From: an uncultured cyanobacterium
Lineage (GTDB): Bacteria > Cyanobacteriota > Cyanobacteriia > Cyanobacteriales > Cyanobacteriaceae
DNA: 64,000 nucleotides
Direction: 5' to 3'
Assembly (NCBI GenBank): GCA_963710605.1
Contig: CAVQBA010000005.1
Coordinates: 192,001 to 256,000, forward strand
The position numbers are program-made. Positions 1 through 45,000 of this stretch are shown here, piece by piece. Numbering within the stretch: the first letter of the stretch is position 1; each line of letters opens with the position of its first letter.

Positions 1-3000
1 CTAGGCTTTAACATATCTAATTTTTCTCGATCAGATTTATTATTAGTCACCATCAGAATTGTTTTGCTTTCTTCAATACATTCTTTAATCTGTTTCCAGA
101 AGGCATTATAACCGCTTTCATCTAAATTTCGGGTAGGTTCGTCTAATATTAATAAAGTAGGATTTCCCACTAATGCTAAGGCAAAGTATAACCTTTGTTT
201 TTGTCCTCCTGATAAGTCTGTAGCCCAAGATTCTGCTTGATCTTTTAAATCTACTTTGCTTAATACTTCTTCTACACTCAAAGAATTAACATAATAACTT
301 TGCCATAAAGAAATTAATTCTTTGACTTTAATGTTGCTTGGTATTCCAGTGTTTTGAAGTACATAACCTATTTTCATTTTAGAAAGGGGATCTTGAGGAG
401 ATAAACCCATTAATTTAACAGTGCCATGATTAGGCTTAATTAAACCTAAAATTAAGTTTAATAAGGTAGTTTTTCCTGAGCCATTTTCCCCTTTTAAGAC
501 TAAAAATTCTCCTTGTTTCAGGTTTAAATTAATATTTTCTAACACTTTATTGCTGTTAGGAGAAAATATATTTTTTCTGAAGGTTTTAGATACTTGTTCT
601 ATTTCAATTACATTCATGTCAAATATTAAGGATCAACAATATTTTTTACGAAGCCTGTGTCACAAACCAAATTAATACCGCAATTCCCACCGCCGGAAGT
701 AAAGAGACTCCCATCGTAGTTGCGATCGCATAACCAGCAATACCACCAATAAGTGCTAGTAAATTACCTGTTGCAGAGTGAGCCGAACCGTTTTCACAAT
801 TTACACTAGCTACACAGATATTTGTATCCCCAGAAAAAATTGAAACAGTAGCAATGATAGCTACAACTAAAATTCCTCCGAGAATAATAGTTTTCAAATT
901 CGATGAAAAACCAAATTGATGATTCTTTGTCATCATATTTTCTTGTGGTAATGGAGTCGATAATTTTATCTTTTCTTTATCTTTGATGATGTTAGAAGGA
1001 TTGGTTTGTGTAGAGGTGATGTCTTGAGACTGTGTTTCTGGTTTCATAGTCATTTACTCTGTTAATGAAAGTGTAGAGTGACAATAAAGTTGGTAACTTT
1101 CAACCTATTAAAGCCTTATTACTTCGTCAATAAAAATTGAAACTAAATAAATAAAGTTGGTAACTAAAGACTAACTAAGCTTTTTCTCTACAATTTTAAT
1201 GACAATAAAGTTAGTAACTTTTCTGAAAACTATATAGATGAATGTGTTTACAATATAATTTTTTAAATTAAATTATTAAAACTTTTGTTTAAGATCGCAA
1301 TCGTGCTACGCCTGCCGCTTTAAGCGATCGACAAATCTTTTTGTAATAGGATAATAAAGTTGTATAACTTAGGTAATACCTTATTTTATAATAATCATAT
1401 ACTAGTTATTTAATTAAAAATAAAATCTACTGTCCTAAGCTATCTTCAGTCTTGAAATGTTACATCATTTTCAATAAGATTCGATCGACTTCAGTCGCCG
1501 CTGCGCGATCGTGTAGTACCGTTCTACGCACAATCGCAAATGTGATTAATTGTCAAAATCGATCGAGTAGTAATACTAAGAAATTGAGGAAATGAGAATC
1601 TCTAAAGTTATCATCCGATTAAAAAACTGAGGGAAAATCTAGATTAGTACTACTAAGGCGTATTATTTTGAGAATATGAGAACTCAAAAAGATACACTTA
1701 TTAGTTAATTCATACGATCGCTATTAGTAATTTAATAACTTTGTCATGAAGAGTAAAAGTTATTATTTTTTTTATTTTTCCCTCCAGTGATTGTACTCCG
1801 TAATATCTAAGCTCCTCTTATTTTTAACTTGACGAAATAAATTTCTACAAGTGACAAATAATTTGCCACTTATGGAAATCGATTTAGCAACCCATCGGTG
1901 AATGACAATCACCATAAAAAGGATCGATCGGTTTGACTGGATTGGGACGAGAATTATTTTGAGTTGATGTATTATTTTCAATCGGAATATTTCGATCGTT
2001 ACTCGGTTGCGAATTATTAGACATACCACCACTAATCCATCCATCTAAAACTAGACCCATAAGTAATAATTGTGCAGCTACTTGTTGTTGTCTGATTTGC
2101 TGTTGTTTTTCAATATAAGCTTGTTGTTCGCTTGGAGAAAGACTTTCAAAATAAGCTCTTCTTCTGACTGCTTCTTGAATTTCTTGTTCTTTTGCCGCCG
2201 CACGAGCTTGTGCAAGTTCTTCTTGTCTTCTTTTTCTTTCTTCTAAACGTATTTGACGTTGCTGTTCGGCTATTTCTCTTTTTTCTCGTTTTTCTTCACG
2301 TACTTTTTCTTGCTCAACTATGTCTAATACATCATCAACTCCCTCCTTTACATCATTAAATACATCCCAAAAACCAGCAGTCAATATATTGTCTGACGGT
2401 TGTGAGAGTAATAAATCAGCAGTATCGATCGTATTGGGTTCAATTTTATTTAGTCCATCTTGACTAGCGGATACAGTCGTAAAACTGCCTGAAACCAAAA
2501 TCAGACTGCTTGCAAGAGTACATATACTTTTATTTCTTTTCATAATTAATCTGTGTTTGTATTAACTGAGTTGTTTCGATTAATAACTAGAATAAATTAA
2601 TTATGAGGAATAATCATGTTGCTCGTGCGAACAACTAAATATATGTAGAAGATTGATGTTAAAACTTTTACAGTTAATAGGTTTGAGATTTTGGTGATAT
2701 TTTCAAACAAGATAAGATAGACGATCGAATAGTCAAAATCGATCTTATTTTCTTTCTGTGTTGAGAAGATACAATTATTGAAAGAAAGTTCTTTTTCTCA
2801 ACGAAATTAGTGAGTTAAACTAGAAAAATACTCAAACCATTGTTTTACATTAATTTTCGCTCCTGCGGCATTTTTATGACCACCACCACCATAGTGTTTA
2901 GCTACTTGCGATACATCAGCACCACCATTTTTACGACTACGAAGGTTAATCACGATCGTATCATCAATACAACTCCACATCACTACATATGGTGCTTGAG

Positions 3001-42000: not shown

Positions 42001-45000
42001 TTCCTTTAACTTTCTTACTATTGCTTATAGTTTTATCTAAAACGGCATCTGTTGAAGCTGTTGCTTGCTCGACGATATTTTCAAATTCTGCCATTAGATC
42101 GACTTTGGTTTGTGTTTCTTTACCTTTGTATTTTTGCTTTTGCAGTTGCTCATAAGCCAATAAACATTCAATCTCTTCCCAAGTTTTGCCCACATATCTA
42201 TCTTCAAAATCAATAATCGAACATTTTTCGTAGTCTTTTCCATCAGAAGAACGAATATAAAGGTATTCTGGTTTTCTCGGATCGTATGATATATTTAAGT
42301 ATTTTTCATCTTTACTAAAAGATCGACTTCTAGCTCTTTCAAACCACTGCTCTGTTTTTGCTTTTTCACAGGTATAGTAAAGCTTTTTAAATTTAATACC
42401 TTTAGCTGTAATAGTTGCTCGTCCCAAAGGCATTAAGTTGAGTTTGACGATATCTTCAGGAAATGTTTTTAATCTTCCCGAACGCTTCTCTATTCCCCAT
42501 TGCCATAAATTTTTCGGTTTCGGTACAACATCATCTATAACCATATCAGTGTCCCGCTGATAATTATCAAGATAATGATTATTGTTGTGTTCTAGTATCA
42601 AATAAATAATTGCTTTGGTAAACTCGTCTAAACTTAATTTACTATCAAGACGATAATCTTTACCTCCTCTTTGAGTAAAATCTACATCTACATAACCAGG
42701 AACGAATGGTTTAACTTTACCGTGCATGGTTTTAAAATGCCTTTCCACAATACCCTTTTGATCTCCTCTATATGGTGCTGCATTTTCAATACGTATTCCC
42801 AAATTGTTAATGGAAGTTTCTACATTTTTTCCTGCTAATTCACCACGATCGCCTAAGATGACTTCTGGTACATGATGAACTTGCCATTGTTCCTCTGTAA
42901 TTTCAATACCGTATTCCGCACAGTATTTAACTTTGTCAGTAGCTGCATTAACTAGAGCCATCATCATTCCCAGCCATGAAGGTCCTTCTAAACCAACATA
43001 GACACCTGTAATCATTCGGCTAAATACATCAATAACAAGATACACAACTGGTCTGCCAATTATCCAGTTACGGTTATATTTAGAAACTAAATAAACATCA
43101 GCTATTGTGGCATCAATTTGATAGCGAGAACCAGGACCAATCGTTTCTTGTTTAGACGTTCGGGTAATAGCCCTATACTCTAAAGCGAAGGCTCTGCTTC
43201 CCCTTCTAGAGCTAATAGTTTTCTTAATATCTTTTTTATACTCCTTATCGTACCAATAGCGAAACTGTCTTATTGTCGGTCGTCTGCTTGGTGGAATTAA
43301 TACCGACTTTCTAACTCCGCGATCGTCATAGACTATTTCCTCGCTGTAATAATCTTTGAGCATCAATTCATAAGCAGTCGTCAAAAAGTTACCTTTTCGA
43401 TTATTGTAAAATTTGGAGATAGCAATTCTAAAAATTTTGAGATCTTCCTCATTTATATTTATTCCTTCACCTATTTCTGCAACTTTTTTGTACTTTCTTG
43501 GTCGCCCTCGCTTGACACTATTACTAGCTTTTCTAGTTTTACCTTTACCACCTGAATTGGAATAGTCGGGAATCAAGGAATTTTTAGTTTTTCCTCTTTG
43601 CCAATATTTCCTAAGATAATCATAGATAGTTTTTTTGGCAATTTTGTCTGTAGATTTGGCGATCGCTTCATTAATCAAAGAACCTCTTAGCGATCGATCG
43701 TATATTTCTGGTTCTTGCTCTACTATCGAGGCGATAATTTTCCAAGTTTTATCTCTTATTTCTATTTCTATCTCAGATAAATTATCTTCCGTAACTATTC
43801 TCAACCAAGGATCTGACTTTAATTTTATAGCTGTTTCCTCAGAAATTGCTTCTTCAATTTCACTCATTCTTTTTGCGTAAGGTACACCTTTATTAGTATG
43901 AATATCAAAGACAAAAGCAAGGATATAGTTTTCGTCTATCCAAACTATTCTCTCTACTTTTGTGGATTCTGGATCATTCAACCATTCAATTAAATCATTA
44001 ACATATAGCATTGGAAACCTTAAATATTATTTATTTATATAATTGCTTTAATGATATTTACCGCAGGATGAGCAGCGATTTTTGCTTGAAACATATCAAC
44101 AACAATTTCTTTTCTCGAGACCAAATGTTTAAACAGAGACAAACAAGTTCCAATTTCTAAATTCATATCCTTATCTAATGCTGTTGTAATAGCACTAATT
44201 TTTGATTTGTTACTACTCAACCTTTCTTTGAGAATGTTGCTCAGATAATAACAGTTTTCATTGTTTTGCTCCTCTGACAATTTCCAATGATAATCAGAAT
44301 GAATCCATTGAATATTAGATGCGAAAGTTGTTGATATTTCTTGTTCGGTAACGATTGCCCAATCAATATTGTGTTTTTGCCAATAGCGTCTCTCTAATTC
44401 TAATTTTTCGATCGTTCTTTTCTTGCCAAGCTCTTTAGTAGTTTTAAATGTACGAGCAATTTGAACGGATTTGTTATCCTGTTCGACTGTCAACATAAAA
44501 TCGGTGGTCAACACGTAAGGAGTATTATTTTTCCTGTTTACTGGATATTTAATTTCCATCTCTTTAGCAATTTCCATTGCCAAATCCAGATCTAGTAATG
44601 GATACTGCTCTCTAATGTCTTGAACTTCCTTACTCCATTCAAATATATAGAAAAGCCTTGATTCCCAATCTGACATTAGATGATGTGGGCGATCGCTTTT
44701 CCATCCAGGCGCTCGCGAAGCTCTTCCTACAGAAGGAAAATCTTGAATAGTTATCCAAGGCTTGTAGTCTTTGCCTCGACCTTTACCCCGTCCTTCTTTT
44801 ACATATCGCTCAAACTTAGCTTGAGTCCAATCGTATCTGCTTCTAGCCATTAGAAAACTGCACAATATAGAATTACTATAATTATACAGCTATAGTTACC
44901 AACTTTATTGTAATTTTGCTCTAAGTTACCAACTTTATTGTAAAGTTACCAACTTTATTGTAAAGTTACCAACTTTATTGTAATTTTACAACATAAATAA

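Follow-up and report, generated by a model that had tools for sequence, protein, structure and literature searches.

Four sets of earlier findings bear on the locus considered here. AvCAST (Tn7743) of Anabaena variabilis ATCC 29413 belongs to the type I-B1 CASTs, a family described in PMC11406308; it comprises separate tnsA and tnsB genes together with tnsC, a small tniQ beside cas6-8-7-5 and a short array, and a large TnsD that homes to glmS, it contains no cas1, cas2 or cas3, and its TnsA, TnsB and TnsD are close kin of those of prototypic Tn7. In the CRISPR3 locus (III-Bv) on plasmid pSYSA of Synechocystis sp. PCC 6803, genes are ordered cas10, cmr3, cmr4, a small protein and a long fused RAMP protein, there is no cas6, and crRNAs are matured by RNase E, according to PMC12464536. 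Defence cargo on Tn7-like elements is also already known, the main text of Benler et al. 2021 (PMC8649781) including two Tn7-like transposons with type III (cas10), both from Proteobacteria, as well as nine 'minimal I-B' elements in Cyanobacteria. Finally, in the main text of Hu et al. 2024 (PMC11300857), type I-B CASTs and III-B systems are reported to co-occur within genomes; none of the terms 'within the CAST', 'inside', 'distance' or 'proximity' is used there.

The window, i.e., the whole 64,000-nucleotide stretch of DNA that was analysed, comes from an uncultured cyanobacterium. The reading that we favour as a whole, and hold to be probable, is that window positions 1072-44990 correspond to a single Tn7-like type I-B1 CAST that lies 24 nt downstream of glmS, inserted with its right end first, and the cargo of which includes a type III-B module of the Synechocystis III-Bv kind (Table 1). 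The element has all of the AvCAST traits listed above, as well as a cyanobacterial host, a likeness drawn from family models and a review description rather than from the AvCAST sequence; it differs from AvCAST in having a type III-B CRISPR-Cas module in its cargo, two identical spacers in the CAST array and no target-site duplication. The cargo module shares with CRISPR3 its gene order, the lack of cas6 and a 36-nt repeat with a 5' hairpin, an AU-rich single-stranded tail and a GGAAAC 3' end. Still, the two Cas10 proteins are only 30.7% identical, the cas1, cas2 and csx18 genes found beside CRISPR3 have no counterpart in the cargo module, and the latter further includes Csx1 along with WYL and DHH proteins and is found on a transposon rather than a plasmid. 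As in the elements of Benler et al., a CRISPR-Cas defence system is among the cargo of a Tn7-like element; unlike in the type III elements given in the main text of their paper, the carrier is itself a cyanobacterial type I-B1 CAST. Whereas the co-occurrence described in the main text of Hu et al. is per genome, the III-B locus of the present element is enclosed by the ends of the CAST.

Table 1. Features of the CAST, its cargo and its attachment site (window coordinates).
Feature	Position	Strand	Length	Basis or remark
Left end	1072..1220	+		terminal TGTAGAGT and three spaced TnsB sites
orf219, low-complexity, probably secreted	1884..2543	-	219 aa	sequence reading
DHH-DHHA1 phosphoesterase	2807..3670	-	287 aa	Pfam DHH and DHHA1
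Long RAMP protein, Cmr6-Cmr1 fusion	3826..5421	-	531 aa	PADLOC Cmr6 model PDLC01212, residues 25-529
cmr5	5436..5972	-	178 aa	PADLOC Cmr5, E 9e-13
cmr4	6004..6885	-	293 aa	NCBIfam TIGR02580, 133 bits
cmr3	6867..8060	-	397 aa	Pfam Cas_Cmr3, 146 bits
cas10/cmr2	8296..11280	-	994 aa	PADLOC Cas10b, 1160 bits
cas10-to-array divergent intergenic region	11281..11717			presumed leader and promoters, from position only
Type III-B array	11718..13146	+		20 repeats of 36 nt, 19 different spacers
csx1, CARF-HEPN	13803..15533	+	576 aa	PADLOC CARF1--CARF_HEPN, 480 bits
WYL/WCX-domain protein	16399..18612	+	737 aa	Pfam WCX; PADLOC WYL, 59 bits
Other cargo, partly decayed	18613..31805			includes unnamed ORFs and the next four features
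IS4 transposase fragment	21365-21742
VapE/primase-helicase, C-terminal fragment	22854-23735
DUF4407 protein	23941-25272
CFI-box-CTERM protein	26570-27640
tnsD, glmS-homing target selector	31806..33767	-	653 aa	Pfam TnsD, 358 bits, and TniQ
CAST CRISPR array	34637..34892	-		4 repeats of 36 nt, 3 spacers
cas5	35160..35789	-	209 aa	PADLOC Cas5b, 270 bits
cas7	35790..36740	-	316 aa	NCBIfam Cst2/DevR; PADLOC Cas7b
cas8	36743..38389	-	548 aa	NCBIfam csx13_N and csx13_C; PADLOC Cas8b
cas6 of the CAST	38402..39049	-	215 aa	Pfam Cas6, 191 bits; PADLOC Cas6b
tniQ, small TniQ partnering the Cascade complex	39133..40068	-	311 aa	PADLOC TniQ_IB, 239 bits
tnsC, AAA+ ATPase	40068..41753	-	561 aa	Pfam AAA_22 and TniB
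tnsB	41765..44011	-	748 aa	match to Tn7 TnsB chain 7pik
tnsA	44035..44865	-	276 aa	Pfam Tn7_TnsA-like_N and Tn7_Tnp_TnsA_C
Right end	44893..44990	-		four TnsB sites and terminal ...TTTTACA
Right-end TnsB sites	44893-44912, 44923-44942, 44943-44962, 44963-44982
Spacer, glmS stop to right end	44991..45014		24 nt	first 5 nt ACATA; direct sequence reading
glmS, attachment-site gene	45015..46889	-	624 aa	Pfam SIS and GATase_6/7

Ends, attachment site and CAST core

Gene families were called with Pfam, NCBIfam and PADLOC, and these calls, together with the ends, bear out the initial annotation of the locus as a type I-B1 CAST at glmS. Cognate Tn7-type ends lie on both sides of the 43.9-kb span. With up to 3 mismatches allowed, the window contains six copies of the 20-nt TnsB-site repeat, as opposed to 0.02 expected by chance. 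The 15-nt core of this repeat, with at most 1 mismatch, is found at exactly seven places in the 3.93-Mb genome, with three cores on the + strand at the left end (1083, 1150 and 1204) and four on the - strand at the right, glmS-proximal end (44895, 44925, 44945 and 44965). The earlier count of seven genomic copies, four at one end and three inverted at the other, was thus reproduced. The termini, which had been described as inverted copies of each other, are indeed identical at 25 of 28 positions, reading TGTAGAGTGACAATAAAGTTGGTAACTT from position 1072 on the left and, as the reverse complement ending at position 44990, TGTAAAATTACAATAAAGTTGGTAACTT on the right. The spacing of the three left-end sites (67 and 54-55 nt) recurs at the left ends of related CASTs in the genomes G043 and G044. 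As for the attachment site, glmS is present in 21 of 21 related genomes and is 88% identical to the copy of the same-genus genome G001. With the glmS stop codon at 45015-45017, the distance of 24 nt to the right end given previously is correct, and the right-end remnant in G001 is also found 24 nt from the stop codon of its glmS.

All nine CAST genes are open and of full length when compared with their relatives. TnsA matches Tn7 TnsA chain 1t0f (E 3e-47), TnsB matches chain 7pik over residues 4-701 (E 4e-125) and is 88% identical to the Waterburya agarophytonicola copy, and the N-terminus of TnsD matches Tn7 TnsD chain 8glu (E 6e-32). The E, D and K columns of TnsA and the DDE columns of TnsB are conserved relative to Tn7. 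The tniQ product gave a Pfam TniQ match, as well as a TnsD match over residues 201-310, while comparison of the cas8 product with PDB entry 8fcj revealed a match to Cas8 (E 5e-72) and, in the C-terminal part, to Cas11 (E 1e-9). The CAST array contains the four repeats originally assigned to it, and its two leader-distal spacers are identical.

As the genome is a seven-contig assembly with an estimated completeness of 84.9%, wrongful joining of the III-B locus and the CAST core was considered. However, the contig is 332 kb long and of even composition across the element, no repeat that could have led to a false join is found at the borders in question (the long inverted repeats, at 15.6-21.0 kb and 26.3-30.3 kb, fall within the cargo), and neither end and neither flank recurs elsewhere in the genome. 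Such an assembly artefact is accordingly deemed improbable in the extreme.

The type III-B module

The type III-B locus sits between tnsD and the left end and so inside the two cognate ends, as initially proposed; the sister CAST in G044 holds unrelated cargo in the equivalent position. Its description as complete is an overstatement: the full effector set, Csx1 and the guides are present, but cas1, cas2 and a cas6 of its own are all absent from the module. As such, the module consists of effector, signalling and guide components without adaptation. Apart from the cas6 of the CAST, genes of these three kinds are found in the genome only on contig C1. Since the element as a whole contains neither cas1 nor cas2, the module is unable to take up new spacers unaided, and its 19 spacers represent an inherited set. 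The array, previously assigned 18 repeats, in fact contains 20, namely, 16 identical, 2 variant and 2 degenerate copies, the last at the 3' end, with spacers being 33-42 nt long. The repeat was not found elsewhere in the genome. No protospacer was found for any spacer, so that targets lend no support to the defence activity that the module would presumably provide.

Cas10 contains a GGDD cyclase motif at residue 790, and no HD dipeptide was seen in residues 1-250. In the Cmr6-Cmr1 fusion, NCBIfam places Cmr6 at residues 77-215 and Cmr1 at residues 249-311. The CARF-HEPN and DHH proteins named in the initial annotation were both recovered, the former at the same 480 bits. Csx1, with an R-x4-H motif (RNKTVH) at residue 499, is predicted to be a signal-activated RNase, while the DHH-DHHA1 protein, which matches phrog_4771 (238 bits) and in which the DHH and GGGH motifs are both intact, is a candidate signal-degrading enzyme. 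Homologues of the WYL/WCX protein adjoin related III-B loci, and this protein is likely a regulator linked to the module.

That the module lacks a cas6 probably does not make it defective, given how gene order and repeat architecture match those of the RNase E-processed III-Bv system; the host genome encodes RNase E. At the same time, the only cas6 of the element is that of the CAST, raising the idea of functional coupling, whereby the CAST takes guides from the III-B array as a private spacer store or CAST Cas6 matures the III-B crRNAs. The main text of Hu et al. 2024 (PMC11300857) lends this idea some backing in that I-F and I-B CASTs can use crRNAs of co-resident defence arrays if the repeat structures are alike, as does the co-occurrence of type I-B CASTs with III-B systems cited above. 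Here, however, the repeats differ in both sequence and fold, in that the 5' hairpin of the III-B repeat is followed by 16 nt of AU-rich tail with GGAAAC at its end and the CAST repeat (- strand) has a 3'-proximal hairpin and a 6-nt tail, and dissimilar repeats gave no transposition in the same study. Moreover, related III-B loci with neither cas6 nor a nearby CAST point to Cas6-independent maturation, with no Cas6 being found at seven such loci (47 flank ORFs of at least 130 aa examined). Coupling of either form is therefore considered very unlikely.

In the remaining cargo, the decayed IS4 fragment and the truncated primase-helicase indicate that the cargo is not a recent, clean assembly. One further ORF, orf219, was considered as a Cas6 and rejected, none of the Pfam, NCBIfam and PADLOC families matching it above threshold.

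Relatives and history of the locus

The sister CAST in G044 shows the same order as the element described here, i.e., right end, tnsA to cas5, array, tnsD, some 27 kb of cargo and left end. By contrast, and counting against the favoured reading, the association of a CAST with a III-B locus does not recur among the relatives examined. None of 57 related III-B loci (31 from genomes and 26 from metagenomes) has CAST genes in the flanks examined, and no Cas10 match of E 1e-20 or better was obtained in the five genomes with the closest CASTs.

The two flanks of the element differ, with GAAAG at 1067-1071 and ACATA at 44991-44995, and a fragment of tnsD, 62% identical over 167 aa, is found approximately 2.1 kb outside the left end; both points had been raised at the outset as possible objections. 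Comparison of the flanks thus revealed no 5-bp target-site duplication. As simple cut-and-paste of a 43.9-kb unit at this site should leave such a duplication, its absence is counter-evidence to the favoured reading. An hsdR fragment and other debris also lie beyond the left end, such that the history of the locus is one of repeated insertion and decay. Old CAST debris past the left end sits where earlier glmS insertions would be pushed.

These observations are compatible with a different history, in which an older CAST of this clade, or else older island DNA, contributed the left end at 1072 along with the III-B locus, and the intact tnsA-tnsD core arrived later at glmS. The core's own left end and the older right end and core genes would then have been lost by deletion, making the 43.9 kb a fusion of two insertions that, having kept one right and one left end, might still be movable. 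This family often shows tandem and decayed CASTs at glmS, with G004 containing two decayed cas6-cas8-tnsD sets downstream of glmS, G043 two left ends 600 bp apart and G001 a right-end stub only. In G004, a III-Bv-like locus is found at the far edge of the glmS island, with no recognisable left end there. Furthermore, TnsB sites are identical among relatives in which TnsB identity is 74-88%, so an earlier CAST from this clade could be the source of the left end, which is not assignable to one element. Yet a fusion would require deletion of exactly one left end and of one right end with its core, and no second tns or I-B cas remnant and no extra end were found within 1221-41381. The lack of any TnsB-type site in that region at up to 2 mismatches means that tnsD and the III-B locus are not separated by an internal left end. 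Old fragments are found only past the left end, and the layout equals that of the G044 sister element. As such, origin by two insertions is unlikely, albeit worth keeping in mind, and insertion as a single CAST remains the preferred reading. Given the absent duplication and the older CAST remains past the left end, it is only inferred that the 43.9 kb would today move as one unit.

Predicted workings and significance

Based on knowledge of the family, TnsD would bind the 3' end of glmS and recruit TnsC, upon which TnsA and TnsB would move the DNA bounded by the ends by cut-and-paste. In the alternative route, CAST Cas6 would mature the crRNAs of the 4-repeat array, and a Cascade of Cas8/Cas11, Cas7, Cas5 and Cas6, together with the small TniQ, would direct insertion beside matching DNA on other replicons.

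For defence, the 20-repeat array would be transcribed on the + strand, with its repeats probably being cut by host RNase E, as in Synechocystis CRISPR3; this is suggested by the lack of cas6 in the module and by the 5' hairpin and AU-rich single-stranded tail ending in GGAAAC. A Cmr2-3-4-5-6/1 complex would then bind complementary transcripts, and the Cas10 palm domain, with its GGDD motif intact and no HD motif seen, would make cyclic oligoadenylate to switch on the CARF-HEPN RNase Csx1. Degradation of the signal may fall to the neighbouring DHH-DHHA1 phosphoesterase, and regulation of the III-B locus to the WYL protein.

In this manner, a single element combines two CRISPR systems that differ in type and use, and one of them, the RNA-targeting III-B defence system, is an unusual cargo for an element of a kind that is already known.

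Gene content and class of the element downstream of glmS

The host genome (3.93 Mb, 33% G+C, 7 contigs) contains a 43.9-kb Tn7-like element downstream of glmS, in a window the genes of which find their closest relatives in Pleurocapsales-type cyanobacteria, such as Waterburya and Xenococcaceae. The gene order, established from an ORF listing and searches with three family libraries, is presented in the table. Beyond tnsD lie some 30 kb of other DNA, the final 17 kb of which correspond to a type III-B CRISPR-Cas locus.

Features of the element and its insertion site, listed in order from glmS outward (window positions)
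Feature	Position	Strand	Remarks
glmS	45015-46889	-	start of the order, reading away from glmS
tnsA	44035-44865	-	separate ORF, TnsA match; Tn7 TnsA at E 3e-47
tnsB	41765-44011	-	separate ORF; E. coli Tn7 TnsB at E 4e-125
tnsC	40068-41753	-	separate ORF; AAA_22/TniB matches
small tniQ (311 aa)	39133-40068	-	TniQ_IB, 239 bits; Pfam TnsD over residues 201-310
cas6	38402-39049	-	Cas6b
cas8	36743-38389	-	Cas8b
cas7	35790-36740	-	Cas7b
cas5	35160-35789	-	Cas5b
CAST array	34637-34892		4 repeats
large tnsD (653 aa)	31806-33767	-	Pfam TnsD, 358 bits
WYL protein	16399-18612	+	
csx1 (CARF-HEPN)	13803-15533	+	480 bits
III-B array	11718-13146	+	
cas10/cmr2	8296-11280	-	1160 bits
cmr3, cmr4, cmr5, Cmr6-Cmr1 fusion (531 aa), DHH-DHHA1 protein, orf219 (unnamed)	after cas10	-	

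The initial annotation described the element as a type I-B1 CRISPR-associated Tn7-like transposon (CAST) at glmS, and family models indeed recovered tnsA-B-C, tniQ, cas6-8-7-5 and tnsD; the 4-repeat array named there is also present. According to the retrieved text of a review by Hsieh and Peters (PMC11406308), CASTs of this type are recognized by separate tnsA and tnsB genes, two TniQ-family proteins, of which the small one retains part of a TnsD domain, a type I-B Cascade that lacks cas1, cas2 and cas3, homing to glmS and a cyanobacterial host. Here, TnsA and TnsB are unfused and, together with TnsC, are encoded by three ORFs, while the two TniQ-family proteins comprise a small TniQ with a partial TnsD domain, encoded beside the cas genes, and a large TnsD. 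The cas6-cas8-cas7-cas5 genes are accompanied by the short 4-repeat array, with no cas3, cas1 or cas2 in the element; Cas1, Cas2 and Cas3-type matches in the genome are confined to contigs C1 and C3. As judged from its sequence, the element presents all of the defining features of a type I-B1 CAST listed in the retrieved text of PMC11406308.

All nine CAST genes are open and full length in comparison with their relatives. TnsB is 88% identical to a Waterburya copy over residues 1-748, and tblastx against relatives yielded an unbroken match from cas5 through tnsA. The columns that we take to be the TnsB DDE triad and the TnsA E/D/K residues are conserved in alignment to Tn7, TnsD matches the N-terminal part of Tn7 TnsD, and Cas8 matches solved type I-B Cas8 and Cas11. 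In the CAST array, the two leader-distal spacers are identical 37-mers (34673-34782), reflecting a duplicated repeat-spacer unit.

Transposon ends and the history of the glmS island

Allowing up to 3 mismatches, the window contains six copies of the 20-nt repeat on the glmS side, where 0.02 would be expected, and the 15-nt core of the end repeat is found only seven times genome-wide at up to one mismatch. Four of these TnsB sites lie at the right end on the minus strand (44895-44979; spacing 30, 20 and 20) and three at the left end on the plus strand (1083, 1150 and 1204; spacing 67 and 54), exactly the partition between the glmS side and an inverted far side that had been reported. The termini, likewise described as inverted copies, open with TGT at 1072, close with ACA at 44990 and are identical at 25/28 positions. 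In Tn7, sites are packed beside tnsA and spaced at the far end; the present element shows the same architecture, with inverted TGT/ACA termini and sites packed on the right and spaced on the left. The right end, at which tnsA is found, is nearest to glmS and lies downstream of the gene, and the distance of 24 nt stated earlier was reproduced when read from that end to the stop codon. Because the same three-site layout recurs at the left ends of related CASTs in two other genomes, G044 and G043 (spacing 67 and 55 nt), the end at 1072 is a true left end of the kind typical of this clade of CASTs.

No 5-bp target-site duplication was detected at the element ends, with GAAAG lying to the left of the left end, ACATA to the right of the right end, and neither pentamer being present at the opposite flank. 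These differing flanks, together with a tnsD fragment (62% identical) outside the left end, had been raised as a caveat, one that our analysis upholds. The flanks of the sister CAST in G044 (L055 18500-18545 and L056 450-496), the ends of which fall on different contigs of a metagenome-assembled genome, similarly contain no 5-bp duplication, a result of little weight given that split. The outward flanks of that CAST have in common the octamer AATTACTT, at slightly different offsets, which may be due to chance.

The region immediately outside the left end (L001 14305-19999 plus window 1-1071; G000:C5:186305-193071) encodes a 135-aa unnamed membrane protein, the ATPase and permease of an ABC transporter and the tnsD fragment, followed further outward by genes for DUF5615 and PhoD-like proteins and the C-terminal fragment of hsdR, beyond which lie tRNA-Leu(GAG) and mltA. 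Given this debris, the interval between glmS and tRNA-Leu is best described as an island with older, decayed layers. Type I-B2 and I-D CASTs use tRNA genes for attachment, and the island may therefore have received insertions from either side.

Against this background, the type III-B locus is probably cargo of one element. It sits between the only two ends, no further TnsB-type site was found at up to 2 mismatches in positions 1221-41381, and the element's interior contains neither tns nor type I-B cas genes beyond the one set. Moreover, the sister CAST in G044 (TnsB 74% identical) shows the same layout and size (~40 kb), but its cargo in the same place, ~27 kb encoding Ser/Thr kinases, FHA, PP2C and VWA, is unrelated. 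Counting against cargo status are the differing 5-bp flanks and the older debris beyond the left end. Fusion of two elements of the same clade would account for the absent target-site duplication, although we regard such a chimera as unlikely; the missing duplication would also be explained if sequence beside the left end had later been deleted, or if the island had arrived through recombination and not transposition.

In this cyanobacterial family, glmS has commonly been the site of repeated insertions that then decayed. G043 (L057 14500-15300, G043:C69) has a pair of complete three-site left ends separated by 600 bp, one with GGAAAC-type and the other with GGTAAC-type sites, which shows directly that two related CASTs inserted in tandem. 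The related genome G004 contains two decayed cas6-cas8-tnsD sets. In G001, a genome of the same genus as the host, only a right-end stub is present (L017 14702-14855, G001:C188), comprising one TnsB site and ~100 nt of tnsA and located 24 nt away from the stop codon of its glmS. This stub is 94.7% identical to the element and glmS 82.5% identical, and because the former value exceeds the latter, the comparison suggests a separate, more recent CAST arrival in place of descent shared with the host gene. An empty site was not found in G001, where the stub is present and synteny downstream of glmS differs, such that the original target sequence was not recovered.

The type III-B cargo module

Family models identified Cas10/Cmr2, Cmr3, Cmr4, Cmr5, Cmr6 and Cmr1, the last two fused in one protein. 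The accompanying array, originally counted as 18 repeats, contains 20, of which 16 are identical, two are variant and two, at the 3' end, are degenerate; these separate 19 different spacers of 33-42 nt. The module had also been termed complete. This holds for the effector genes and the array, but is too strong for the locus as a whole, as neither the adaptation genes cas1 and cas2 nor a dedicated cas6 is found in the element. In the host genome, Cas1, Cas2 and Cas6 are encoded only on C1, beside arrays with other repeats, and no copy of the III-B repeat was found elsewhere in the genome. A 20-nt piece of this repeat returned eight single chance matches and no array from the representative genomes of genome_contigs. 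The possibility that orf219 is a hidden Cas6 was rejected, since it has no family match and a low-complexity, secreted-looking sequence.

Cas10 retains GGDD (residue 790), whereas its residues 1-250 contain no HD dipeptide. Csx1 includes the R-x4-H motif, while the DHH protein retains DHH and GGGH motifs. Based on these motifs and established knowledge of type III systems, cyclic-oligoadenylate signalling to Csx1 is the likely route of action of the module. The DHH-DHHA1 protein (2807-3670), encoded at the end of the cmr operon, matches the phage DHH phosphoesterase family phrog_4771 (238 bits), and has no homologue at any of 57 related III-B loci; this protein could act by breaking down cyclic oligoadenylate or the products of that signal.

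In the predicted fold of the III-B repeat, bases 1-20 form a 5' hairpin and the remaining 16 nt an AU-rich tail with GGAAAC at its end. CRISPR3 of the Synechocystis plasmid pSYSA, a system of subtype III-Bv, shows the same gene order, likewise includes no cas6, and has a repeat with hairpin, tail and GGAAAC end. The cargo module accordingly displays the III-Bv traits, namely no cas6, a long fused RAMP protein, and a 5' stem-loop with an AU-rich single-stranded 3' part. In the retrieved text of PMC12464536, maturation of CRISPR3/III-Bv transcripts is assigned to RNase E, with cleavage in the AU-rich part at 13-14 nt from the repeat 3' end. In this subtype, RNase E produces crRNAs with 5' handles of 13-14 nt. 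A gene for RNase E is present in the host. Among 47 flank ORFs at seven related III-B loci, Cas1 was found at three loci and Cas6 at none. The repeat fold, the likeness to CRISPR3, the host RNase E gene and the count of 0/7 for Cas6 together indicate that systems of this kind probably do without cas6 as a rule.

Searches for spacer targets yielded no protospacer. The 19 III-B and two distinct CAST spacers gave only chance matches of 13-22 nt in their own genome, the III-B array gave none against phages and plasmids at E 0.1, and the CAST array none against plasmids at E 1. Exact search of genome_contigs with one CAST spacer yielded 0 matches, as did four 26-28-mers (from 3/19 III-B spacers and one CAST spacer) against viral_contigs, and no spacer matched any of the 70 loci compared at E 0.01. 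As reported in the retrieved text of Hu et al. (PMC11300857), type I-B CASTs co-occur with III-B systems, and CASTs can use guides of co-resident defence arrays if the repeats fold alike. As the III-B and CAST repeats fold differently, sharing of guides between the two systems of this element is highly improbable.

Two long inverted-repeat pairs were noted inside the cargo, with arms of 60-224 nt that are 72-97% complementary. The first (15575-15969 with 20798-20965) flanks the WYL gene and two small ORFs, and the second (26333-26762 with 29857-30281) a CFI-box-CTERM gene. Perfect or near-perfect tandem heptamer runs, such as CCTTTGC x5 and TTAAGAG x6.4, occur both in the element and outside (13271-13305, 26189-26219, 60018-60062, 60124-60157 and 63131-63165).

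Recurrence of the pairing and its implications

No Cas10 match at E 1e-20 or better was found in the five genomes with the closest CASTs (0/5), and the same query recovered the second III-B Cas10 of the host (tblastn, 31% over 1011 aligned residues, E 3e-117). The locus encoding that distantly related protein (G000:C1:294343-306683) also includes cas1, cas2, a WYL gene and a 37-repeat array; in an order-level genome search, its Cas10 aligned with that of the cargo at 37% over residues 34-930. A further host system, with Cas3, Cas6, split Cas1 and Cas2, lies at C1:174-181 kb. Within the flanks examined, CAST genes were seen at 0/31 genome and 0/26 metagenome III-B loci with Cas10 43-59% identical to that of the cargo. 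The best Cas10 identity was 59% in genome_contigs and metagenome_contigs and 64% in the order-level genome search; no donor of the module was identified among the relatives searched (Cas10 identity of at most 64%). Plasmids of cyanobacteria often harbour relatives of the module (22 records).

Across 301 genomes sampled evenly from the order, 26 contained TnsD-like genes and 94 contained Cas10-like genes; both were located within 100 kb on one contig only in the host genome and in G004. The latter, from another genus of the same family, contains a ~65-kb island downstream of glmS (G004:C1:3794001-3862000, L100-L103) with decayed CASTs, a type I restriction system, AbiJ, TnpB and a group II intron reverse transcriptase, as well as a canonical type I-B system that includes Cas3 and an array of 11 repeats. 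At its far edge, with core genes directly beyond, lies a different III-Bv-like locus, made up of WYL, an array of 11 repeats, csx1 and the genes from cmr6 to cas10, in which Cas10 is 32% identical to the cargo Cas10 and the array repeat ends in ...TGAATGGAAAC. No left end was seen in this island. The G004 case hints at, but does not prove, a CAST/III-Bv pattern.

The observation is real and well delimited and the cargo is notable, mobility and activity being predicted. No new mechanism is involved, and those of both parts are known. Defence cargo in Tn7-like elements and co-occurrence of CASTs and III-B systems within genomes are known as well. The retrieved text of Benler et al. (PMC8649781) counts two Tn7-like transposons, each from Proteobacteria, in which a type III system is carried, and describes complete CRISPR systems as infrequent cargo, while a Vibrio III-B/I-F hybrid is placed on a prophage, outside the CAST, in the retrieved text of PMC6360697. 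A full-text literature search, covering the retrieved text of PMC9881144 and PMC11656645 among others, yielded no account of a type III module located within a type I-B1 CAST, although such a case could be listed in the supplements of the surveys by Benler (2021), Hu (2024) and Hsieh and Peters (2022).

CASTs are studied as programmable DNA insertion tools and as drivers of gene flow, and natural cargo reveals what they spread. Here, one element would combine two CRISPR tasks, with a nuclease-free type I-B system aiming the transposon and a type III-B system that can attack invading RNA. Such a natural element makes it testable whether guide RNAs are shared or kept apart between two systems, whether a type III system without cas6 and cas1/cas2 is functional after transfer, relying on host RNase E, and whether a CAST of ~44 kb is mobile. 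It also presents glmS-linked cyanobacterial islands as the product of successive CAST insertions and decay. A more speculative proposal, which we consider unlikely, is that glmS-homing I-B1 CASTs in this family repeatedly serve as vehicles of Cas6-independent III-Bv modules that would work on arrival in any cyanobacterium, since host RNase E is all they require; the transposon would thus bring along an RNA-targeting immunity already equipped with spacers, protecting both new host and transposon against phages and rival plasmids. If so, this element and the G004 island, with two independent III-Bv lineages at their far edges, would be the first traces of such a pattern.
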